64,000 bases of DNA, from assembly GCA_036253495.1 (NCBI GenBank), contig GCA_036253495.1_4125.1; one strand, written 5' to 3'. This stretch comes from a phage. The notes beneath the pieces are model-generated. The model saw nothing but the letters and a program-made list of their open reading frames with translations. It made no database searches and was not told the DNA's origin. Shown here piece after piece: positions 4,043-62,131 of this stretch. Both the position numbers and the translations under genes were made by a program. Numbering within the stretch: position 1 is the first letter of the stretch; each line of letters starts with the position of its first letter.

Positions 4043-4593
4043 ATAAGCCTCTGATTTTGTTGGTTGGTGTGTTGGTGATTTTTGTTATTGGTGTGTTTGC
4101 AACTGTAAGTATGTATAGTTCAGCACATGATAGTGCAGTGAATTTTGAAGGTAATATTAAAAAGTACTACGATGCATCTGAAAGTCAACTGAGCAGTTAT
4201 ACACTAACTATTCAAGAAAAGGTTCAAGTATCGGACAAATATAAGGATGCATTGAAAGAGACAATCGAAGCGTACTTTAAGGGACGTGAAGGAGTTGATC
4301 AGAAATTTGTAATGTCACAGATTCAACAGCAAGTTCCAAATCTTGATCCTAAGATTTATCAAGAGTTGATGGTTACAATTGATGCAGGGCGTGAGAAGTT
4401 CAATAACTTGCAGAAAATGAAAATTGAACAATGTACTGATTATGAGAAATTCCGCAAAGGATTCTGGAACTCCAAAATCATCGATTCTAATACATTCCCA
4501 AGTAAAGATATTGAACATTTGTGTACTGTCGTTTCTGATACTCGCACTAAGAAAGCAATGGAAACTGGTATTCAGGAAGTAATTAAATTGTAA
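4039..4593 (+). CDS. membrane-anchored hypothetical protein
   Basis: ATGA start/stop overlap with upstream gene; N-terminal TM helix; LemA-like only a weak impression. Confidence 0.55.
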   Translation: MNKPLILLVGVLVIFVIGVFATVSMYSSAHDSAVNFEGNIKKYYDASESQLSSYTLTIQEKVQVSDKYKDALKETIEAYFKGREGVDQKFVMSQIQQQVPNLDPKIYQELMVTIDAGREKFNNLQKMKIEQCTDYEKFRKGFWNSKIIDSNTFPSKDIEHLCTVVSDTRTKKAMETGIQEVIKL

Positions 4594-4600
4594 GTATTTG

Positions 4601-4627
4601 GGGAGTACATTATTGTACTCCCTTTTT
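4601..4627 (+). terminator. intrinsic terminator hairpin GGGAGTACA-TTAT-TGTACTCCC plus T-run
   Basis: Perfect 9-bp stem 4601-4609/4614-4622 followed by TTTTT. Confidence 0.6.
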
Positions 4628-4644
4628 AATAGGATATATAAACT

Positions 4645-5226
4645 ATGTTTTATAATGAAACTCTTAAGTTGTTCGAGCGTATAGCAGAAATCAAAAAGCG
4701 TGCATATGATAATATAATTCTTCCTTATAGTTTTGAATCAGATACTATAATTTTTAAAATGAAACATCATGCTCGTCATTATGAATTTATTTTAGGGATA
4801 AAAGAACCTAAAATTGAATCCAATGTTCCAAATATATCATCATCTATCGCAGTTCCAAGCGGTGTAAATATTACCCACGGTCATCCAATGACAATTGCGG
4901 CAACTTCATCCAATACGATTATTGAGCGTTATATTAAAGTTTGTACAACAACAGCTATGCAAAATATCATATCAGTTGAGTGGAGTGAACTACCAAGTAA
5001 GTTCATTTACTTCACCAATAGTAATGGTACAACGCCTGAGAAAGAATATATGGGTAATAAGATTATGTCAGCTATGATTCTACATGAAAAAACGCTTATC
5101 AATGGTGAAATATATTCATTAGAAGACAATCCAGATGCATTTATTAAAGACATTGAGGGTTCCAATAAATTTAGTATTTTAGAAGTATTAAATCTTGAAA
5201 AGGATTATAAACATGCAATACGATAA
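4645..5226 (+). CDS. hypothetical protein
   Basis: ORF with ATG 4645 downstream of terminator. Confidence 0.5.
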   Translation: MFYNETLKLFERIAEIKKRAYDNIILPYSFESDTIIFKMKHHARHYEFILGIKEPKIESNVPNISSSIAVPSGVNITHGHPMTIAATSSNTIIERYIKVCTTTAMQNIISVEWSELPSKFIYFTNSNGTTPEKEYMGNKIMSAMILHEKTLINGEIYSLEDNPDAFIKDIEGSNKFSILEVLNLEKDYKHAIR

Positions 5227-5743
5227 TAAAGATCTACCATATCTCCCCGATCTGGAAAGAGGTGTTAATGAGTTCGTTCAGGTAATATCAGAGTGGGATG
5301 TATCAGTATTTTCATATAATCGTAAGAAGGATTTCGAATATAAAGGCGTTCATTTTTTTATCACGGATAATTTAATAACCCTGCAATCTAAAATAGAAAT
5401 GTTTGGATCTTTAGACCCCATATATCGTCAGCCATATTCTGATCCATACAAAGAAAATATTGCAAGAATGTTTGAAAATAGAACAAGACAATATACCCGA
5501 AATTATTTTGGCACTTTCGATTTCACTAAAAAAGGTACATTGGTTGGATATACCATATCAACAGAATCTTTCACATCTATACATAGTGTGATTCTTGGTG
5601 AGAAAAAAATGTTAGTTAATAATGAATATTGGTTAGACCGTGAAAATTTTCATGAATATGCATTTCAGCATTCTGTAGCAAATCCAAAAGAACCATTTGA
5701 TGTGTTCTTTATTTCTAATGTATTAAGAATGTTAGGAGAATAA
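5213..5743 (+). CDS. hypothetical protein
   Basis: In-frame ATG 5213 with AAAGGAT RBS; short overlap with upstream gene end. Confidence 0.5.
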   Translation: MQYDNKDLPYLPDLERGVNEFVQVISEWDVSVFSYNRKKDFEYKGVHFFITDNLITLQSKIEMFGSLDPIYRQPYSDPYKENIARMFENRTRQYTRNYFGTFDFTKKGTLVGYTISTESFTSIHSVILGEKKMLVNNEYWLDRENFHEYAFQHSVANPKEPFDVFFISNVLRMLGE

Positions 5744-5744
5744 T

Positions 5745-6098
5745 ATGTTGATTTACTTATGTGTGCTTTTGGTTTCATTGGTTGTAGCAGTATTAGTACT
5801 GAAAACTATTTCAACTATTCGTTCTAAAATTGATAAACATCAAGAAAATTCTGTTATCGATTTAGTTATGGATTTTCCTAAAATCAGTGCAGCCGTTGTT
5901 TTTGTTGTTATGTTATTTGGAACATACTGCGTAAAAGGCTACCTCTATGGTATGTATGATTGTAGCGTTCGTTCATATTCACAAGGTGTTGAAACTGACT
6001 ATAGCTGGTACTATGGTAAGTGTCGTTTTAAAAATGAACATGGTATTTGGGTAGATTTTGATAAACTACGCGGAACACCATCAGGTGATGAAGAATAA
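5745..6098 (+). CDS. small membrane protein
   Basis: AGGAGA RBS; two hydrophobic segments. Confidence 0.5.
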   Translation: MLIYLCVLLVSLVVAVLVLKTISTIRSKIDKHQENSVIDLVMDFPKISAAVVFVVMLFGTYCVKGYLYGMYDCSVRSYSQGVETDYSWYYGKCRFKNEHGIWVDFDKLRGTPSGDEE

Positions 6099-6592
6099 TG
6101 TTTGAATTTCCTGATGAACAACCAAAAAACTACATTGACTGTACTGAAGATGGATACACGCATATCAATATCTACAGTAAAGGGAAAACTAAGCTAGGGA
6201 GAGATTTATCTAATTTTTCTCCCCATAGCTTTACACTAGAACCATATGGATGGTTTCCTTCGGTTGAGTCTTTTTATTTCTGGTTCCTCACTGGACAACA
6301 GCATGAAGAACTTAGAAAGGTATCAGGAGCCGCAGCGAAAGCCGCTGCAAACAAATATATGCATGACCGTATAGAGATGACACCTGAGCGATTAAATGTA
6401 ATCCAGGATGCGATATGTGCTAAAATAATGCAGAATCCTGAACTTGCTGAACGATTGCGTAAAAGTACTCTGAAGTTTGAGCATTATTATTTGTATGGTG
6501 GTAAGATTATTGATGTTAGTGATGACCACCGTTGGTTTGTTCAGACCTTTGAGGATATCAGAACAGTACTGAAGGAGATGAATAATGGATAA
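6098..6592 (+). CDS. NADAR (YbiA-like) domain protein
   Basis: Motifs NIYSK, LSNFSP, WFPSVESFYFWF, ELRKVSGAAAKAAANKYM align to YbiA-type pattern as I recall it. Confidence 0.65.
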   Translation: MFEFPDEQPKNYIDCTEDGYTHINIYSKGKTKLGRDLSNFSPHSFTLEPYGWFPSVESFYFWFLTGQQHEELRKVSGAAAKAAANKYMHDRIEMTPERLNVIQDAICAKIMQNPELAERLRKSTLKFEHYYLYGGKIIDVSDDHRWFVQTFEDIRTVLKEMNNG

Positions 6593-26025: not shown

Positions 26026-27714
<1,689 letters not shown>

Positions 27715-27717
27715 TTC

Positions 27718-27873
<156 letters not shown>

Positions 27874-27901
27874 CAAAACGAAATGATAATAGGAAATTAA
27901 A

Positions 27902-28087
27902 ATGCAACTTTTAATTCTTTCAATATTGTATATTATTATAATGGTTCCTATATCAATACGTTTAATTATACTTGAACGATTTTTATCGAAACATGGAAAT
28001 AGATCTATGATATTTGTACCAATCGGGCTTATATTGTTTGGTATATTTGCATTTATAATGGGAATTAACGCTACATTCATTTCATAG
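27902..28087 (+). CDS. small membrane protein
   Basis: ORF with two hydrophobic helices. Confidence 0.45.
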   Translation: MQLLILSILYIIIMVPISIRLIILERFLSKHGNRSMIFVPIGLILFGIFAFIMGINATFIS

Positions 28088-28096
28088 GAAACAAAT

Positions 28097-28578
<482 letters not shown>

Positions 28579-28585
28579 AAGAACG

Positions 28586-28618
<33 letters not shown>

Positions 28619-28619
28619 C

Positions 28620-28675
<56 letters not shown>

Positions 28676-28676
28676 T

Positions 28677-28807
<131 letters not shown>

Positions 28808-28808
28808 A

Positions 28809-28883
<75 letters not shown>

Positions 28884-28926
28884 GGTTCAAGAAGAAAACT
28901 GGGGTTTTTAACCTAACGAGGTCAAT

Positions 28927-29069
<143 letters not shown>

Positions 29070-29070
29070 A

Positions 29071-29201
<131 letters not shown>

Positions 29202-42024: not shown

Positions 42025-42987
42025 GTGAAGAAACTAGACTTAAACGCAATTTCCGAAGAAGTACTGGATGAATGTTTTGCGAATGAAGAAGTCAATCCAT
42101 TGGAAGCAATTGAACCATCAGAAGTTATTGAAGATGATATTCCACATAAAGTTCGTAGTAAAAGTAACATTAGTCTCAAGCGTCCAGTAGGTGTGACTAA
42201 TGAATCCATCATCGAAGAGATTCGTGCTGGAATTAATGTAAAAAAGAACACTGACCTATTACTTCGTTATAACTATGGTATGATCGTTGATGTTGCTTCA
42301 AAGTGTACATGTTATATTCCGTTTGAAGATAAAATTGCATATGGTGTAGAAGGTTTTATGCGAGCACTTAAAACCTTTGATCTTAGTAAGAATGTCAAAT
42401 TCATTACATATGCAACAACGTCCGTTTATATGACTATGTATAATGAAAGTTCAGATGCAAATTACATGGTGTACTTACCACGTTATATGAGCGTTCATAA
42501 CATCCAAGTACGTCGATTTAATGAATCATATCAACGTGAACACGGTAAGCGACCTACACCAGAATTAATCTCTGAGAGTACTGGTATCGAGCTTCAGCAC
42601 GTTAAGAACTGTTTGTTATACCAGAATGCATATACGACTCTTGATGCACAACTGGGTTCAGATTCAGACGGAACCCTTGGGGATATTCTGAGTTCATCTG
42701 CTCGTGATTATAACCTTAATGTTGATAGCATTTGTAATCCATTACGTTATGCAATCACAGAAATCATTGACGAATTGAGTACTAAAGAACGAGAAATTAT
42801 CATGCGTGTTCATGGTCTGGGGGATTACAAAGCAGAAACCCTTCGTGAAATTTCTGATAATGGATATGTTGATGATAAAGGAAACATTGTTAAGTCCCGT
42901 TCATCTGTGCACCGAAAATATAGTGAAGCTATTCAAAAGCTTAAAAAAATAGTACTTGAAAAAGGGTACGAATACGAAGATTTCTAA
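42025..42987 (+). CDS. sigma-70 family RNA polymerase sigma factor-like protein
   Basis: AGGAGA RBS, GTG start; region-2-like LLLRYNYGMIVDVASK...FMRALKTFDLSKNVKFITYATTSVYMT; region-4-like TKEREIIMRVHGLGD...ETLREIS...KYSEAIQKLKK. Confidence 0.7.
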   Translation: MKKLDLNAISEEVLDECFANEEVNPLEAIEPSEVIEDDIPHKVRSKSNISLKRPVGVTNESIIEEIRAGINVKKNTDLLLRYNYGMIVDVASKCTCYIPFEDKIAYGVEGFMRALKTFDLSKNVKFITYATTSVYMTMYNESSDANYMVYLPRYMSVHNIQVRRFNESYQREHGKRPTPELISESTGIELQHVKNCLLYQNAYTTLDAQLGSDSDGTLGDILSSSARDYNLNVDSICNPLRYAITEIIDELSTKEREIIMRVHGLGDYKAETLREISDNGYVDDKGNIVKSRSSVHRKYSEAIQKLKKIVLEKGYEYEDF

Positions 42988-42994
42988 AGAACAA

Positions 42995-43021
42995 GGGTTG
43001 ACTTAGGTCAGCCCTTTTTTT
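42995..43021 (+). terminator. intrinsic terminator
   Basis: Stem GGGTTGAC / GTCAGCCC with loop TTAG, followed by T7. Confidence 0.7.
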
Positions 43022-43545
43022 ATGGGACAAAATGGATGTTCATGATACAATGATATTGTACAATTCTGTTGGCATGGATGACATGAACCTGATCCACTCG
43101 AAAATGTAGAGGGCAGTTGAGCAGTCCAGCAGTGCGAAGTGCAGAAGAAACCCGTCAGATGTGGGCATATTATGAACCCCTCACGGCAATGCGGCACTAT
43201 AAAGAACCACGTTAGGATGGCTGGTGGTTCCTCGATAGACATATAAGGATAACACCTTACAAATTATCTAAGGGAGAGTTATCAAATTTTGTACAGGAAA
43301 GTTGCGTCCAAAATTTGAGTACTCACATTAAGTATTTGATTGCATAGATACTTAATGAAGATACACTATGTTTAAAAGTGTAGACCGTCATATGAAACTG
43401 AAGTAGAGAGAAACAGGATGACCCGCTTTCGTACTCATTAAGAGTAATCTTCAATGCAATAGCTCTGATACCATCAGCGTCAAATTCCCCTCCCAGCGGG
43501 GGGAAGAAAAATCCCTTCCTCAAATCCCGTCAATATTAAAAGTCC

Positions 43546-43574
43546 TTGACAGTTATTAATCATTCGCGTAGAAT
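43546..43574 (+). promoter_or_regulatory. sigma70-type promoter (TTGACA-17-TAGAAT)
   Basis: TTGACA 43546-43551, TAGAAT 43569-43574. Confidence 0.5.
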
Positions 43575-43638
43575 ACGTAGTATTAGAAGCGAACAGACAT
43601 CTCGAAGAGATGGATGACTAACTATTAAGGAACATTCA

Positions 43639-43848
43639 ATGAATACTACAATCTTTTTAGTAGTTGCTCTTTCAATGCAATCCGGTGTACAAATTACCCC
43701 TATGAATTCATTAAACCAATGTTTTTCTGTACGTGATAGTACATACGAACAAGTAAACAAAAATTCTTGGATGACAGTTAGTGAAGAACAAATGTGGTGT
43801 TACAAAAGTGATATTAAAGCGAAATTTATTGTAGGACAAACTCAATGA
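43639..43848 (+). CDS. secreted hypothetical protein (signal peptide)
   Basis: N-terminal hydrophobic leader. Confidence 0.45.
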   Translation: MNTTIFLVVALSMQSGVQITPMNSLNQCFSVRDSTYEQVNKNSWMTVSEEQMWCYKSDIKAKFIVGQTQ

Positions 43849-44039: not shown

Positions 44040-44069
44040 TCACCGAATGCAGTGAAGAGGAAATCTAAA

Positions 44070-44864
44070 ATGAGTACTATCGATGAATTGATTCGACGGA
44101 ATTCAAAATATTACCAACCATCAGAAATTGTGGATAATATTACTAAATCTGAGTTTGGACCTAATACTCGCAAACTCATTCATGTAATGTCTCGTGACGG
44201 CTTTAAATGTGATTGTTGTGGTGAATCCAATGTAGTATTCACTTTACATAAGCACAGTACTAAAGAACGTTATAAATTCAGACCTTATGTACTTAAAGGG
44301 AAACGTCTTGTACGCATGACGTTAGACCATAATGTACTGGACTGTCTCCAGGGTGGTAATGATAAAGAGAACATGACTGCACTGTGTGAGGATTGTAATG
44401 CCTTACGCCAGCATAAGTTCGCAGAGTACAGCGAGTTTAAGTACTGGTATCATAATGCAGACCGTTCAATTGAGCCTAATGTAAACTACTGCTTCATTGA
44501 GTACATCAAGAATGCAAAAGATACATACATTCTTAAATCCATGTCTCCGATTACAGTGTTTCCTGAGAATCTATTCAGTACTATGGAGCGTGATTTCAAG
44601 CGTGGTATCATCAATGCATTCAAGCACTTAGACAAAGGTATCAAGCACTTTGATGTTGAATGTTTAAATTCAGGTATGAATCATTTAGTACAAATTTACA
44701 TGAAATCGTTTATAGGTATTGACAGTGCACGACTACCAGTATATAATTACTTTATTGAAAGCGTAGAAGGTGAATCACTTCGTGATTATGGTGAAAGATT
44801 TAATAAGAAAGTTTTCACTGCAATAGCAAATGAGATTCATTACTATAAACCATATGTAATTTAA
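44070..44864 (+). CDS. HNH endonuclease-like protein
   Basis: CDCCGE ... DHNVLDCLQGGNDKENMTALCEDCN pattern (Cys pairs around His/Asn). Confidence 0.55.
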   Translation: MSTIDELIRRNSKYYQPSEIVDNITKSEFGPNTRKLIHVMSRDGFKCDCCGESNVVFTLHKHSTKERYKFRPYVLKGKRLVRMTLDHNVLDCLQGGNDKENMTALCEDCNALRQHKFAEYSEFKYWYHNADRSIEPNVNYCFIEYIKNAKDTYILKSMSPITVFPENLFSTMERDFKRGIINAFKHLDKGIKHFDVECLNSGMNHLVQIYMKSFIGIDSARLPVYNYFIESVEGESLRDYGERFNKKVFTAIANEIHYYKPYVI

Positions 44865-51417: not shown

Positions 51418-51425
51418 TTAAAAAA

Positions 51426-51457
51426 GGTTGACTAACGTCAGCCTTTTTTGTTATACT
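51426..51457 (+). promoter_or_regulatory. terminator-promoter composite cassette
   Basis: Hairpin GGTTGAC-TAAC-GTCAGCC plus T6; embedded TTGACT 51428-51433 and TATACT 51452-51457. Confidence 0.55.
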
Positions 51458-51596: not shown

Positions 51597-51788
51597 ATGT
51601 TGATTTATCAATGTGATAACATTCGTGTTATACAGCATCCCTACTTACAAATCTTTGATGTGCAGCAGTATATGGAAGGTGATGACCCAAGAACCTATGG
51701 TCGTAAGTATGATTACTTCACTGTAAAGCAGTGTCGTAACATCAAAGAAGTACGACAATTAGTTCAAGAACTTCAAAATAAAGGTTGA
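51597..51788 (+). CDS. hypothetical protein
   Basis: ATG 51597 after GAGGACT RBS; track start 51567 is a non-ATG codon. Confidence 0.45.
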   Translation: MLIYQCDNIRVIQHPYLQIFDVQQYMEGDDPRTYGRKYDYFTVKQCRNIKEVRQLVQELQNKG

Positions 51789-51814
51789 CTTCGGTCAGCC
51801 TTTTTTGTTATAAT
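51783..51814 (+). promoter_or_regulatory. terminator-promoter composite cassette
   Basis: Hairpin GGTTGAC-TTCG-GTCAGCC plus T6; embedded TTGACT 51785-51790 and TATAAT 51809-51814. Confidence 0.65.
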
Positions 51815-53148: not shown

Positions 53149-53180
53149 GGGGTTGGCATAAGTCAGCCCTTTTGTATAAT
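53149..53180 (+). promoter_or_regulatory. terminator-promoter composite cassette (degenerate copy)
   Basis: Hairpin GGGTTGGC-ATAA-GTCAGCCC plus T4; TTGGCA 53153-53158 and TATAAT 53175-53180. Confidence 0.5.
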
Positions 53181-54210: not shown

Positions 54211-54434
54211 TGAAAAGGTATAAAATTGAATACCTACTTAAAGTAAGAGAGAAAAGTATTAGTAGTGAGAAATACACCAGTGAGATATTCGTCAGAGATG
54301 AGTATTACATTGGTGAAAATGAAGTTGAAGTACTGTTACAATGCATAGAAAATGAATTTCGAGATATGACACGTTATATGTCATTTGAGATATCGTGTGC
54401 AAAAGTTACATTCTTGAACAATACTTCATATTAA
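54210..54434 (+). CDS. hypothetical protein
   Basis: ATG 54210 overlapping upstream stop. Confidence 0.5.
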   Translation: MKRYKIEYLLKVREKSISSEKYTSEIFVRDEYYIGENEVEVLLQCIENEFRDMTRYMSFEISCAKVTFLNNTSY

Positions 54435-54438
54435 AAAA

Positions 54439-54478
54439 GGGTTGACTTTTGTTGACCCTTTTTGCTATTCTATAAATA
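54439..54478 (+). promoter_or_regulatory. terminator-promoter composite cassette with downstream TATAAATA (T4 late-promoter-like)
   Basis: Hairpin GGGTTGAC-TTTT-GTTGACCC plus T5; TTGACT 54442-54447; TATAAATA 54471-54478. Confidence 0.5.
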
Positions 54479-54524
54479 TAGACATAGAGAATATATAACA
54501 TGAAATCTATGGAGAGAAATCAAA

Positions 54525-56063
54525 ATGCCAGGTAAATTCACTGACAAAAACGGCGGCAATATGGCTGGACACTCTGATAAATGGAGTGATGAGAATCGTC
54601 GCAAAAATAGTTTCCAAGCGGGGCAAGGTTCCCGTGGCTCTCGCAACCAAGGAACGGGAGAAGCTGGGAAAGCAAACACAGTTGCATCACAGGGTCTTGA
54701 TACTTCAAACATGTCCCAGCATGAAAAATTGAAGTACTTCAATAGTCTTGGTCTTTTAAATCCGCAGCAGAAGCAACAACTTGCTGCTCTGGATAAAGCA
54801 CAAGAACAACCTAAAGCAGCACCTGAAGCACCTGCACAGCCTAAAGCGGCTAATCCGGTAAAAGAACTAAGTGATAAACTTGGGAAGATCTTTGCTAACA
54901 AACCACAACTAATTCAAGGTATCGTAAAAGCACTTCAAGCGGTTCCTAAAGAACAACTCAAGGATAAAGCACAAGCTGTTCTTGATAGTATGAAAGGGAA
55001 TACCAGTACTGAACCAACTGAAGTATTCAGTACTATCATGCGTGCACTTGAAGGTAAGCCACAGGCCGATGATGATATTGAGTTTGATGAACCTGCACAA
55101 GAAGTAGCAAATCTTGACTCAATCGTTTCTACATTTGGAAAAATTGGTGCAGAAGATAAGACTAATGCACAACAAGTTAAGAATGTACAAGCTAAGTTAC
55201 AAAATCGTCTTGAAGGTAAAGATGAAAAGATTAAACTTGCAGCAGATGCGTTGAAGAAAGCATTAGAATCATATAAACCTGGTGAGAAATCTCGCTTCAT
55301 TACTGCAATGAATGCAGTATTCGGTGCAATGAAAAAGTATGAAGCTGAACACGGTGAGAAAGTAACTCCTGATGGATATCTCCTTCGAAAAGATGAAGAA
55401 GGTGCTGTTGACCAGAAGGACGCTGAACCAGACTATGGTGATTTACCGGATACAGTTGATATGGATGGTTACATTCATCGTCCTGATATGCAAGAATTTG
55501 GTTCAGACAAAGAAGGTTTTGAACATGCTATGGCTGTGTACAAAGCATTAGTCGATAATCCACAATATGCAAATAGTTTTGTAGATGAGTTTGATAGTGC
55601 ATGGAACAACTACCAAGACAAAGGATATGATTTCCCAGCAGAAGCAGCATTCTTTGAACTAGGTAAACTTCTTGCTAAAAATGGTATTAATGTTGGTTCT
55701 AATGGTGAAGCAAACACTTCAGAAATGGACGCTGAATTGGCTAAAGATCGTGAAATGACTGATAAGTCAATTCATGAACTACAAAAGCTAATGATGTGGA
55801 TTGCTGAAATTGGTAAGAAAGCTGGTGCAGATCCTAAGAGCATTAACAGCAATATTAGTTGGATTAAACATAAGGTTGATAACAATGCCCGTAAATTACA
55901 AAAGGCATGGACCGACCTAGTGAATGGTGCAGACGATGTTGATATCGATTCACCGGAAGCATACGAGTACGCATTGAACACACTTGATAACTCTTTCCAG
56001 GATTACGAAAATGGTAACGTAACTGATTGGGAAAAGGATATCATGCATAAGTACGGTAAATGA
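54525..56063 (+). CDS. Ala/Lys/Gln-rich low-complexity protein (possible virion internal protein)
   Basis: 512-aa ORF, GC-richer codon usage than neighbours; flanked by strong terminator-promoter cassettes. Confidence 0.6.
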   Translation: MPGKFTDKNGGNMAGHSDKWSDENRRKNSFQAGQGSRGSRNQGTGEAGKANTVASQGLDTSNMSQHEKLKYFNSLGLLNPQQKQQLAALDKAQEQPKAAPEAPAQPKAANPVKELSDKLGKIFANKPQLIQGIVKALQAVPKEQLKDKAQAVLDSMKGNTSTEPTEVFSTIMRALEGKPQADDDIEFDEPAQEVANLDSIVSTFGKIGAEDKTNAQQVKNVQAKLQNRLEGKDEKIKLAADALKKALESYKPGEKSRFITAMNAVFGAMKKYEAEHGEKVTPDGYLLRKDEEGAVDQKDAEPDYGDLPDTVDMDGYIHRPDMQEFGSDKEGFEHAMAVYKALVDNPQYANSFVDEFDSAWNNYQDKGYDFPAEAAFFELGKLLAKNGINVGSNGEANTSEMDAELAKDREMTDKSIHELQKLMMWIAEIGKKAGADPKSINSNISWIKHKVDNNARKLQKAWTDLVNGADDVDIDSPEAYEYALNTLDNSFQDYENGNVTDWEKDIMHKYGK

Positions 56064-56072
56064 TAAAAAAGA

Positions 56073-56104
56073 GGTTGACTTCGGTCAGCCTTTTTTGCTA
56101 TAAT
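56073..56104 (+). promoter_or_regulatory. terminator-promoter composite cassette
   Basis: Hairpin GGTTGAC-TTCG-GTCAGCC plus T6; TTGACT 56075-56080 and TATAAT 56099-56104. Confidence 0.65.
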
Positions 56105-58927: not shown

Positions 58928-58937
58928 TCTTTTACAT

Positions 58938-58970
58938 GGGTTGACTTCGTTCAGCCCTTTTTGCTATAAT
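58938..58970 (+). promoter_or_regulatory. terminator-promoter composite cassette
   Basis: Hairpin GGGTTGA...TCAGCCC plus T5; TTGACT 58941-58946 and TATAAT 58965-58970. Confidence 0.65.
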
Positions 58971-59666: not shown

Positions 59667-59699
59667 GGGTTGACTTCGGTCAGCCCTTTTTGCTATAAT
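59667..59699 (+). promoter_or_regulatory. terminator-promoter composite cassette
   Basis: Hairpin GGGTTGAC-TTCG-GTCAGCCC plus T5; TTGACT 59670-59675 and TATAAT 59694-59699. Confidence 0.7.
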
Positions 59700-59965: not shown

Positions 59966-61289
59966 TATTAAAGTACCTTTTAAATGTGAACCACTGAAAT
60001 TTGTCCAAGATTATGAAATATCTAAAACTATCGAATTTAGTGAAACCGCTTCAAAACTTGATATTAGTAGGAAAATTTTAGGTGAAAAGTATCCAGATGT
60101 AATATGGGATGATTTCAATCCATATAATATGGAAAAAGATGAAATGTGTAAAGACGAAATTATTGGCTTTGTTCGTATGGGAGTTCAAAATCTAAAATAT
60201 TATGCATATATATGTCAAAAATGCTCGACAAATTCAAAACAAAATGGTTTAGGTATATTTTTTACATTAAAAAGATATATTAAAAATAAAATTACATGTA
60301 TGTGCTCAAAAACACCACTATATACAAATTATCAACGAACTATACAACTTCATAATAAATCTATAAGTTTAGGTTATGTGTTTATTGGATATAATAAAGA
60401 AAAACAAATAACTTCGGATGCTAAAATAAAACTAGGATGTTATAATCATGGTATGTGGGATACTATAACAATAAATTCGTATAACACCAACTCACGCGGC
60501 TGTTCAAAATGTGCTGGTGTTCATTCACCATCACAGGAAGAAGCAAATGAAAAAATAAAACAAATTTGTAATGAAAATAAATTAGTATTTCAACCTTTCC
60601 TATATAAAAATAATAAAACTAAAATTTTTGTAAGATGTTTGGTATGTAATGAATCATGGGAGTCAAACTATTTTAAACTTTATACCATGAAATATGGTTG
60701 CCAACGTTGTGTAGGAACAAAAAAGTTAACTACTGAGATTTCTACAGGAATTGTATCAGATTATTGTACAAAATATAAGTTGACTTTCATTCCATTTGTG
60801 TATGATAATAATAAGATGAAAATATCTCTACGTTGTGATATTTGTTCACATGAATGGATAACACCATTCAATGGTATTACTAATAGAATGGGGTGTCCAA
60901 GATGTAATCCAACTGAAGCAATACGTATTTCTAAAGATTTAGATCCATTAATAGATGATTTTCAGCCGGAAAAGAAATTCCTTGAACTTGGAAAGATGCG
61001 ATTTGATAGATTCAGTCAACGATTAAACATTCTGTTTGAATATGATGGGGAACAACACTTTATTTCCAATAGGGTTTGGCATTCTACTACATCTAAGTTT
61101 GAATCTTCTCGTGAACGTGACAGTATAAAAACAGAATACGCAATAAAAAATGGATATAACTTCATTCGTATTGCGTATTATGAAGACCATATTGGAGCAT
61201 TGAAATCTTTCCTTAAACTCATTGAAGAGAATCCAGGAAAGCAAATCGTACAGATCTATGGTGATGTTCAAATCTTAGACAAGAAATAA
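59955..61289 (+). CDS. putative homing-type endonuclease with tandem Zn-ribbon repeats and C-terminal Vsr/DUF559-like nuclease domain
   Basis: Repeated CxxC modules (CQKC, CSKC, CQRC, CPRC) in about 45-aa repeats; C-terminal FDRFSQRLNILFEYDGEQHF...RDSIKTEYAIKNGYNFIRIAY. Confidence 0.55.
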   Translation: MRVDIKVPFKCEPLKFVQDYEISKTIEFSETASKLDISRKILGEKYPDVIWDDFNPYNMEKDEMCKDEIIGFVRMGVQNLKYYAYICQKCSTNSKQNGLGIFFTLKRYIKNKITCMCSKTPLYTNYQRTIQLHNKSISLGYVFIGYNKEKQITSDAKIKLGCYNHGMWDTITINSYNTNSRGCSKCAGVHSPSQEEANEKIKQICNENKLVFQPFLYKNNKTKIFVRCLVCNESWESNYFKLYTMKYGCQRCVGTKKLTTEISTGIVSDYCTKYKLTFIPFVYDNNKMKISLRCDICSHEWITPFNGITNRMGCPRCNPTEAIRISKDLDPLIDDFQPEKKFLELGKMRFDRFSQRLNILFEYDGEQHFISNRVWHSTTSKFESSRERDSIKTEYAIKNGYNFIRIAYYEDHIGALKSFLKLIEENPGKQIVQIYGDVQILDKK

Positions 61290-61299
61290 CAATACAAAA

Positions 61300-61332
61300 G
61301 GGTTGACTTCGGTCAGCCCTTTTTGCTATAAT
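61300..61332 (+). promoter_or_regulatory. terminator-promoter composite cassette
   Basis: Hairpin GGGTTGAC-TTCG-GTCAGCCC plus T5; TTGACT 61303-61308 and TATAAT 61327-61332. Confidence 0.7.
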
Positions 61333-61360
61333 TATTTCATCAACTGATGAGGACAACGAA

Positions 61361-62131
61361 ATGACCAGAGAAGCACGCAGCATTCAAATTCAGAAAAACT
61401 TCAACTCCATGATGGTTGCTCTTGAGTGTTTGCTCGATGATAGCAGTACTGTAAAAAGTATGGTTGTCAGCGGTGCTCCTGGTGTTGGTAAGACTTACAC
61501 CCTCTCTAAACGCCTCCAGAAAGCACATGACGCGGCAGAATGGAACGTAGCTACCATCAGTGGTAAAATGACCACTCTGGCTCTGTACGAAGTTCTGTAC
61601 AAGAATCGTCATAGCACCAACGTGTTAGTACTGGATGATATGGACAGCATCTTTGATTCAGAAGACGGTATGAACCTGCTCAAAGCAGTACTGGATAGTG
61701 GCAAGCGTACTGTTTCTTATATGACTAGCTCGAAGTATCTGAGCAGCAACGGTATCCCTAACAGCTTTGATTTTAATGGTCGCATCGTATTCATTACTAA
61801 CAAAGATTTAGCACTGAATGCTAAAGCTAAAACTAAAATGTCTGCTCACTATGCTGCTCTTATGTCTCGCTCTGTATACGTTGACTTACAGATCCAGACC
61901 AAAAGCGATATCATGATTCACATTGAGAACGTGATGAACCAGACCAACATTCTGGAATCTAAGGGTATTAACAGTAATGGTAGTAAAGCAATCCTGAACT
62001 GGATGTTGAAGCACGAAGATTCACTTCGTTCACCTTCACTGCGTATGCCACTGTTGATTTCGGCAGTATATAACAACAACCCATACGATTGGGAAGAGCA
62101 ATGTGAAAACTTGTTCCTGGAGAAAAATTAA
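61361..62131 (+). CDS. P-loop NTPase (AAA-like ATPase)
   Basis: Walker A GAPGVGKT, Walker B VLVLDDMD; GC-richer codon usage (CTG, CGT, ACC) than neighbours. Confidence 0.65.
   Translation: MTREARSIQIQKNFNSMMVALECLLDDSSTVKSMVVSGAPGVGKTYTLSKRLQKAHDAAEWNVATISGKMTTLALYEVLYKNRHSTNVLVLDDMDSIFDSEDGMNLLKAVLDSGKRTVSYMTSSKYLSSNGIPNSFDFNGRIVFITNKDLALNAKAKTKMSAHYAALMSRSVYVDLQIQTKSDIMIHIENVMNQTNILESKGINSNGSKAILNWMLKHEDSLRSPSLRMPLLISAVYNNNPYDWEEQCENLFLEKN

Follow-up and report, generated by a model that had tools for sequence, protein, structure and literature searches.

A gene for a large structured RNA, apparently of a new class, in an unannotated gap of jumbo phage genomes

The locus and its conservation

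The 64,000-nucleotide stretch of phage DNA analysed here (the window) shares 99.5% identity with Escherichia phage A4 (ON286972, Asteriusvirus, 355 kb) and about 82% with the 121Q/PBECO4 group. We studied a gap in it, located between a sigma-70-family sigma-factor gene (42025-42987) and a set of small open reading frames (ORFs) from 43639 on. Segment 43024-43534 of this gap is, with very little doubt, a free-standing + strand gene for a structured non-coding RNA of about 480 nt, whose family is apparently undescribed and novel as an RNA class. The features that define the locus are the following:

42993..43021, + strand: intrinsic terminator of the upstream sigma-70-family gene (10-bp stem at 42993-43016, then a T-run; annotation in A4, 121Q and UE-S1)
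43024..43051, + strand: promoter of the RNA gene, with a -35-like GGGACA (43024-43029) and an extended -10 TGATACAAT (43043-43051); 9/12 matches with TG
43058..43534, + strand: structured non-coding RNA of about 477 nt, from the nhmmer match, conservation and covariation
43546..43574, + strand: promoter of the next transcription unit (ORF 43639-43848), TTGACA-17-TAGAAT, 11/12 matches

An initial annotation of the window had described a non-coding island flanked by a terminator and the next promoter. Both signals are present; they form the left and right boundaries of the gene and lie outside the RNA. The claim that the island has no plausible + strand ORF was borne out as well, with only 32 and 35 codons open on that strand. 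The three minus-strand ORFs (79, 42, and 66 aa) are shadows, as had been proposed: no reading frame on either strand stays open across the 67 homologues described below (median longest stop-free stretch of 53 aa on the + strand and 72 aa on the - strand). The island is also GC-richer than its surroundings, 40.9% for 43020-43545 compared to a window mean of 34.5%, which is the 98.8th percentile among 526-nt windows. This level is reached at just two further places (~54421-55177 and 61151-62107), which could be coding or hold further RNA genes.

A sensitive blastn search with 43017-43550 matched 71 phage records, at 3-5 places in each. The segment is the best-conserved DNA of its neighbourhood: over 534 nt it shares 92.7% identity with the 121Q group, vs ~82% in the flanking 2.9 kb. 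Identity is still ~70% over ~440 nt in Mimasvirus (GAP32, CBB, XbC2), in Eneladusvirus (Serratia BF, Yersinia fHe-Yen9-03/04, Erwinia pEa_SNUABM), and in RaK2-like phages, Klebsiella phages, and Salmonella phages (Munch, 7t3). At every locus that we fetched, the match falls in an unannotated gap of ~600 bp or beneath tiny dubious ORFs; in A4, 121Q, and UE-S1 the gap is 650-720 bp long and bears no annotation other than a 'repeat_region' in UE-S1. Conserved RNA genes thus appear in current phage annotations as "gaps" or lie hidden under spurious small ORFs. Alignment with related phages, which the initial annotation had proposed as a check, revealed a conserved segment and no deletion scar. Its suggestion that the island might be the remnant of an acquired element was refuted: the segment is better conserved than the flanking genes and is kept as 4-5 paralogues.

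To collect homologues we scanned viral, metagenome, and genome collections, screened the matches by nhmmer (the match within the window spans 43080-43533) and retained 67 sequences with less than 94% identity. When the viral collection was scanned a second time by motif, 65 further loci turned up in contigs of ordinary size, which we discarded as chance since none had an nhmmer match. Complementarity in pseudoknot PK2 (see below) was found in 5/65 of these chance pattern matches and in 20/20 true homologues. Two Citrobacter matches in the genome scan were also due to chance. As far as the present data show, members of the family are limited to Rak2-like jumbo phages and a small number of integrated elements in enterobacteria.

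The promoter is among the most constant parts of the gene. The extended -10 (TGnTAnAAT, 43043-43051) is invariant in 67/67 homologues, with T43043, T43046, A43047, A43049, and T43051 unchanged in all of them, and GGGACA/GAAACA is conserved upstream. We placed the putative 5' end of the RNA from this promoter and the putative 3' end where conservation stops, after CGUCAAU. The + strand is favoured by this invariant promoter, by the T-runs of the terminators found in homologues, which lie on it, and by the excess of G-U over A-C cells in the structural model (437 vs 231).

A covarying fold rich in pseudoknots

A first alignment of 11 sequences showed invariant blocks alternating with hairpins of covarying arms, and RNAalifold predicted from it 90 pairs, 43 of them compensated. 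We then built the main model from covarying stacks (100 pairs in 18 helices) and scored it on the 67 homologues, against shuffled data and against partners slid by 1-3 columns. Standard pairs occupied 87.1% of the cells (70.6% in shuffled data, with 0/500 shuffles reaching the observed value, and 37-42% in slid ones), and changes on both sides were seen in 75/100 pairs (59.9 and 35-45, respectively). Compensatory cells numbered 978 (271 shuffled, 113-208 slid) and the covariation score was 0.416 (0.151 and 0.06-0.09). A mutual-information scan of the columns left as 'unpaired' added four more helices, 89.7% paired vs 68.9% after shuffling, so that the full model comprises 114 pairs and 22 helices, five of which are pseudoknots or long-range pairings. 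Conservation and compensatory covariation of the segment are far beyond chance. The structured RNA that the initial annotation had listed among three options is therefore strongly supported by the conserved promoter, the 114 covarying pairs, and the five pseudoknots or long-range pairings, and of that list it is the remnant that fell. The elements of the fold, all on the + strand, are:

43066..43135, +: 5' domain (H1, H2, H3, and a 3-bp helix)
43138..43198, +: domain 2 (H4 43138-42/43194-98; H5 43152-55/43183-86; H6 43158-65/43177-82)
43189-91 with 43240-42, +: long-range pairing AUG/CAU, 100% paired (GC:49/AU:18 and UA:63/CG:4)
43204-10 with 43224-30, +: H7 hairpin, 91.5% paired, 7/7 pairs covarying
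43215-18 with 43266-69, +: H7-loop pseudoknot, 78% paired, 4/4 covarying, just upstream of the box that follows H8
43244-48 with 43255-59, +: H8 hairpin, from the covariation model
43269..43276, +: single-stranded UAAGGGAG, invariant (A273-A278), resembling a Shine-Dalgarno sequence
43276..43324, +: modular hairpin (outer helix 43276-79/43321-24; H9 43283-94/43306-17; 11-nt loop with consensus AAUAUAGAUCC)
43326..43460, +: 3' core (H10, PK1, H11, PK2, H13, H14, H15)
43467..43481, +: H16, a small hairpin ending in invariant CGUCA; weak (GC:11, AU:11; 29.7% paired, poorly aligned in A2)
43486..43504, +: H17, GC hairpin UCCCCUCC/GGGGGGA, its G-run invariant in the 67 homologues
43521..43533, +: conserved tail CAAAUCCCGUCAA, with A525-A527, C529, G532, C534, and A535 invariant, followed by an AT-rich spacer

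In the 5' domain, H1 (43066-72 with 43126-32) pairs the 5' end to the loop of the 3-bp helix (43121-23/43133-35), forming a pseudoknot that encloses the variable hairpin H2 (43073-85) and H3 (43089-43116, with the conserved loop GAAAAUGUA). H1 is an 8-bp stack with 6 covarying pairs, and the 3-bp helix is 100% paired, with 2 pairs that covary; this much better supported arrangement replaced a helix closing the 5' end on the 3' tail that RNAalifold had proposed. Domain 2 (helices 3-5) is 100% and 97% paired, with three covarying pairs in H4. Its internal-loop sequences are invariant, and H6 is swapped for a longer arm in other paralogues. The AUG/CAU pairing joins the domain-2 loop to the invariant GAUAGACAUAU junction. 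No conserved ORF follows the Shine-Dalgarno-like UAAGGGAG, a start codon being present after it in some lineages only.

The 3' core holds the strongest tertiary signals. H10 (43326-35 with 43348-57) exposes in its loop AUUGCAU (43339-45), which pairs with AUGCAAU (43454-60) to form PK1, 99.3% paired and covarying in 7/7 pairs. After H11 (43362-67 with 43377-82), PK2 joins GUCAU (43387-91) to AUGAC (43418-22) in the H14 loop and is 100% paired. H14 (43406-10/43426-30) belongs to a three-way junction with H13 (43399-403/43449-53) and H15 (43433-36/43442-45); pairing is 99% in H13 and H14 and 94.6% in H15. The GC hairpin noticed in the initial annotation, CCCCUCCC-AGC-GGGGGG, was found at 43487-43503 and is part of H17. 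The substitutions seen in H17 turn G-C into G-U and preserve pairing on the + strand only, which argues for an RNA hairpin on this strand. Long invariant junctions (GAUAGACAUAU, UAAGGGAG, GACCGU, and GAAACAG..ACCCGCUU) run between the helices. Together with the five pseudoknots or long-range pairings, they suggest a compact tertiary structure, as in ribozymes, GOLLD and ROOL. There is also a likeness between the 5' start (ACAAUYCUG) and the 3' tail (ACAAAUCYCGU).

Some motifs recur beyond the tail. Hairpins with a C-GUA-G loop (e.g.: AAUAC-GUA-GUAUU, window 43574-43600) are found 40-110 nt past it in phage and bacterial copies, as are scattered (A/G)CGAA motifs. Iteron-like 'ACGA(A/G)' repeats were considered for the downstream region and dropped, because clusters of at least three occur in just 6/66 copies.

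Paralogues in phages and single copies in chromosomes

An nhmmer search of the whole A4 genome found four full-length copies, all on the + strand:

A4 ~321 kb (= this window), +: copy c1, directly downstream of the sigma-factor gene
A4 65,169-65,643, +: copy c2, in the gap following A4_403
A4 205,621-206,116, +: copy c3, flanked by the endonuclease VII and baseplate-hub genes, which are both encoded on the other strand
A4 125,756-126,304, +: copy c4, in the gap following A4_510

Four copies are likewise present in each of 121Q, CBB, and GAP32, and five in Serratia BF. The paralogues are ~70% identical to one another yet retain the whole fold, with the variation lying in peripheral arms: variants of H2 and H6, and a movable module (UUUGUAC-AAUAUAGAUCC-GUCCAAA) that can be found after UAAGGGAG, inside H15, or in both places. 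A copy at the c3-equivalent position, between endonuclease VII and baseplate hub, also exists in Salmonella phage 7t3, so the paralogues are older than the split of these phage lineages. Each of c1-c4 has different genes downstream, those of c3 being encoded on the opposite strand; lying between opposite-strand genes, c3 cannot be the leader of a downstream gene. The fold is under strong purifying selection on the + strand and is independent of the neighbouring genes.

Several kinds of genes were observed close to the copies. An ORF of 270 aa with an HNH motif (window 44052-44864) is annotated as 'HNH endonuclease' in 121Q, although it has no Pfam match at E<=0.01. It is present in the window and the 121Q group and missing from A4; given that A4 is otherwise 99.5% identical, it looks like a mobile homing-endonuclease gene. 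The annotated HNH/endonuclease VII genes of A4 (A4_397, A4_402, A4_508, and A4_591) all lie within 3.3 kb of an RNA paralogue in the parts of the genome that we fetched. The presence of nuclease genes beside all four A4 copies might most economically be put down to homing endonucleases whose targets are the most conserved DNA. Phage sigma-factor genes are also found near copies (A4_181, A4_187, A4_588, A4_529, and EJP02_431 in EJP2). Around c1 they lie directly upstream and 1.4 kb downstream; for c3 the distance is 3.9 kb and for the 293-kb copy of EJP2 it is 2.3 kb, in both cases on the upstream side. Such proximity may be a coincidence.

As the genome scan showed, some bacterial chromosomes also carry genuine members of the family, next to serine recombinases or CI-like repressors:

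Citrobacter amalonaticus P55: host hofB/ppdD, large serine recombinase, RNA, CI-like repressor
Serratia sp. 2723: host gene, serine recombinase, RNA
Serratia fonticola GTA-SR07: serine recombinase, two ParB-like genes, RNA, host tilS
Enterobacteriaceae metagenome-assembled genome: host thiM, RNA, CI-like repressor
Serratia sp. L9: truncated copy adjoining a truncated resolvase

In E. coli, a copy was found in 2 of 5,426 complete genomes, within an unannotated 1.4-kb gap of an island of ~11 kb adjoining ffs. The enterobacterial integrated elements carry a single copy each. In bacterial copies the promoter and core are retained, as are H17 and the tail. A search of PLSDB found the RNA on no plasmid.

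No conserved neighbouring protein was found for the family. The candidates that we considered as partners (a gene of ~265 aa downstream of the RNA in Mimasvirus/Eneladusvirus, the HNH gene of the window, and an ORF of the E. coli island) are mutually unrelated. The ffs island of E. coli LR-29-1 contains a DuOB, DUF488, and DUF4326 gene set that corresponds to the PADLOC candidate defence system PDC-M45. We rejected it as a partner of the RNA: it is an unrelated candidate defence system, 2.5 kb away from the RNA in the island. A DUF4326 protein is annotated in phage A4 too (A4_492).

Comparison with known RNAs and interpretation

Large, highly structured RNAs are rare in bacteria and phages. 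Those known include the ribosome, RNase P, group I and II introns, OLE, GOLLD, ROOL, HEARO, and raiA, and each of them revealed new biochemistry. None of the 4227 models of Rfam 15 (including GOLLD, ROOL, OLE, HEARO, raiA, 6S, pRNA, and ribozymes) matches the element. At gathering thresholds the whole window gave only tRNAs; at E<=10, region 42950-43650 gave noise only, and at E<=5 nine homologous loci gave nothing over the element. The covariance-model scan suggested in the initial annotation thus returned no match, because the family is absent from Rfam. ARAGORN called no tRNA over the element and no transfer-messenger RNA (tmRNA) in the window, and with no Rfam match either, a tmRNA was discarded. 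Literature searches found no description of the RNA; fragments of it may be among the anonymous short candidates (mean 67 nt) of PMC10690425.

Short resemblances (CGAUAGACA and ACAG..ACCCGCUU) had prompted readings as a group I intron or RNase P RNA, and both fail on topology, paralogue variation, and covariance models. For a group I intron, the upstream gene ends with a stop and a terminator, the element has its own invariant promoter and the flanking genes differ for each paralogue; moreover, the order of covarying helices does not map onto the intron core (P3-P4-P5-P6-P7-P3'-P8-P7', with its P3/P7 pseudoknot), the pseudoknots joining other elements. For RNase P RNA, there is no match to RF00010/11/373, the 5' end pairs ~60 nt downstream (H1) and not with the 3' end, and a pairing tentatively likened to P4 is lost in paralogues c3 and c4. 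A 9-nt identity to loop B of the hairpin ribozyme (AGAGAAACA) was taken as chance.

GOLLD and ROOL are large 'ornate' RNAs of phages and prophages whose function is unknown (PMC12286853). Like them, the present RNA is several hundred nucleotides long, has many helices and pseudoknots, and is encoded by free-standing genes of phages, prophages, and mobile elements. Unlike them, it shows no sequence or structure match to their Rfam models, does not sit beside tRNA genes, and is found as 4-5 diverged paralogues per genome; GOLLD and ROOL come from Lactobacillales or from rumen and lake samples, while this family belongs to jumbo phages of Enterobacterales. It displays the traits of large ornate non-coding RNAs (more than 400 nt, multiple pseudoknots, invariant junctions, and a free-standing gene on a phage or mobile element), yet the likeness is a functional analogy only, and an oligomeric particle is putative. 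Covariation cannot separate intramolecular from intermolecular pairing.

Other systems are comparable in part. T4-like phage group I introns have a similar size, pseudoknots, a phage host, and HNH genes nearby, but the present RNA has no RF00028 match, no exons, a promoter of its own, and a helix order that misfits P3-P9. The pRNA of phi29 is also a phage-encoded structural RNA, transcribed early and working as an oligomer; it is, however, a 174-nt RNA from a single gene, and for our RNA there is no Rfam match and we found no link to portal or terminase. In the related jumbo phage PA5oct, RNA-seq defined four non-coding RNAs (ncRNA001-004), one of which, of 451 nt, represents ~5% of phage reads throughout infection (PMC7318152). 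Jumbo phages can therefore express abundant RNAs of ~450 nt. As homologues, ncRNA001 and ncRNA002 of PA5oct were rejected: nhmmer detected no similarity in the region where they lie.

Host sigma-70 RNA polymerase would start at the conserved extended -10 promoter, and the transcript folds into a compact multi-domain structure with at least 22 helices and invariant junctions, the folded RNA itself being the likely product. It would be made immediately on infection by the host polymerase, and constitutively from islands and prophages. On the grounds of complexity and context, we lean toward a mechanism in which it would work in trans, at the heart of an RNA or RNA-protein particle that is catalytic or serves as a scaffold or decoy. 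Its presence on a lytic phage, on prophage-like elements, and on a defence-type island suggests a role in the conflict between phages, mobile elements, and hosts, or in host takeover, so that it might work in this biology as GOLLD and ROOL do, without kinship to them. A more speculative extension, which we hold to be possible but doubtful, is a new class of large catalytic or self-assembling RNA: the 4-5 paralogous RNAs of ~500 nt, each with multiple pseudoknots, would be made early and assemble, perhaps as a hetero-oligomer, into a machine or cage acting on components of the host or of rival phages, single copies having been captured by islands and prophages. If so, bacterial islands and prophages would use captured copies for defence or to exploit infecting jumbo phages.

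Some observations weigh against this proposal. Neither a partner nor a target was identified, so that the trans-acting particle is putative and would follow from complexity and context. Folding of single sequences is unremarkable (z = -2.1 on the + strand and -2.8 on the - strand) and does not discriminate between strands. An intrinsic terminator lies between H16 and H17 in 31/67 copies, a hairpin with a T-run directly after the promoter in 17/67, and neither type in 23/67, the window copy among them. In the 31 copies, H17 and the tail, conserved beyond the terminator, must act in read-through transcripts or at the DNA level, which a simple picture of a trans-acting RNA does not explain. Nor does it account for the hairpin and T-run after the promoter of 17 copies. 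In A4 c2 (L014 16091-16137) and 16 other homologues, this hairpin, followed by 6-10 T, stands between the promoter and the conserved 5' end, and may also serve to terminate the upstream gene.

The main rival explanation, which we regard as unlikely, is that the element is an RNA-primed replication origin, like ColE1 RNA II or the R-loops of T4 oriF/oriG. The promoter would drive a folded primer of ~480 nt whose G6 run (43498-43503) would form a persistent hybrid with the template, and processing at the tail (43521-43533), before the AT-rich spacer, would yield a leading-strand primer; a 350-kb genome would then have several origins, one at each of its 4-5 copies, and the copies of islands would let the islands replicate or be hijacked. 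The layout is indeed reminiscent of ColE1, with a sigma-70 promoter ~480 nt before a G-run/C-run and an invariant tail, then AT-rich DNA, and as in RNA II a G-rich/C-rich segment ~500 nt from the promoter comes with a conserved end point and a fold that matters. The copies are spread round the genome (65, 126, 206, and 321 kb in A4), in a number comparable to that of T4 origins, and one Serratia element has little beyond a serine recombinase, two ParB-like genes, and the RNA. The position of H17 and the tail past a terminator in 31/67 copies also hints at a role in cis or at the DNA level. We further counted in favour of an origin that jumbo phages can mobilise genomic islands (PMC12595487). 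Yet that same terminator, present before the G-run in about half of the copies, unlike in RNA II, would stop primer transcription. The RNA is not found on plasmids, its pseudoknots and invariant junctions make it much more elaborate than RNA II and far exceed the structure needed by known primer RNAs, and no conserved promoter for an antisense RNA I-like transcript was seen, the best being a 9/12 match on the - strand. An oriC-like origin, in turn, was rejected: the skew and DnaA-box check proposed in the initial annotation found no DnaA-box enrichment, none of the copies having more than a single DnaA-box-like site within 1.2 kb, and a GC skew that follows gene orientation without a switch at the copies. 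Neither signal is expected at an origin primed by RNA in the manner of ColE1 or T4, so this negative leaves that reading standing and is weak evidence in a T4-like phage.

Somewhat less probable still is a self-processing ribozyme or intron-like mobile RNA, which would cleave or ligate at repeated CGUCA sites or be itself a mobile insertion. The complexity and invariant junctions are of ribozyme grade, CGUCA recurs at 43478-82 and 43528-32, the two ends of the RNA are alike, and annotated HNH/endonuclease VII genes accompany the A4 copies at the distances given above, the HNH gene of the window being missing there. But the element matches no model of group I, group II, RNase P, or self-cleaving ribozymes, interrupts no gene, and has its own promoter; its orthologous positions are stable across genera (A4 c3 and Salmonella phage 7t3), and homing endonucleases that target very conserved DNA are a better explanation for the adjacent HNH genes. 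We give little credence to a cis-regulatory leader (a riboswitch or attenuator) governing read-through into H17, the tail, and downstream genes. It would account for the terminator-like hairpins inside the unit, for a G-run able to pair with the upstream C-run or with a downstream UCYCGU, and for the lack of a terminator between the RNA and the genes from 43639 in the window. However, downstream genes differ at every paralogue and are on the opposite strand at c3, a separate strong promoter (43546) serves the next gene in the window, 23/67 copies have no internal terminator, and ~480 nt is far longer than known leaders. Finally, the minus-strand ORFs and the tiny ORFs annotated here in some records could speak for a missed protein-coding region, a decayed pseudogene, or a deletion scar; we consider this practically excluded, given that no frame is open across homologues, that substitutions are compensatory in stems and do not concentrate at third codon positions, and that the segment is more conserved than the neighbouring genes.

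The RNA has a complexity comparable to that of ribozymes, occurs in cultivable jumbo phages of E. coli, Salmonella, Klebsiella, Serratia, and Erwinia that are under development for therapy, and is kept in several paralogues per genome and also found on bacterial mobile islands. These properties make its function directly testable in a genetically tractable host (E. coli), and it could expose a new layer of jumbo-phage takeover, replication, or inter-element conflict.

Other features of the window and of A4 were recorded along the way. A tRNA cluster (Gly, Ser, Met, Asn, Thr) is found at window 26026-29191, with a sixth, weak tRNA-like Rfam match at 26026-26104 (32.6 bits) that ARAGORN does not call. 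In A4, the large terminase subunit is annotated as two ORFs 275 bp apart (A4_29 and A4_30, 230273-232584), a split that could be an intron or a frameshift, and a 2-kb stretch (4139-6138) holds no annotated gene and, by nhmmer, no homology to the RNA family. The terminator hairpin of the sigma-factor gene (AAGGGTTGACTTAGGTCAGCCCTTTTTTT) recurs almost unchanged towards the right end of the window, as a family of repeated terminators:

51420-51454, 51777-51811, 53150-53173, 54434-54463, 56073-56096, 58934-58962, 59667-59691, and 61298-61324: copies of the AAGGGTTGACTTAGGTCAGCCCTTTTTTT terminator hairpin

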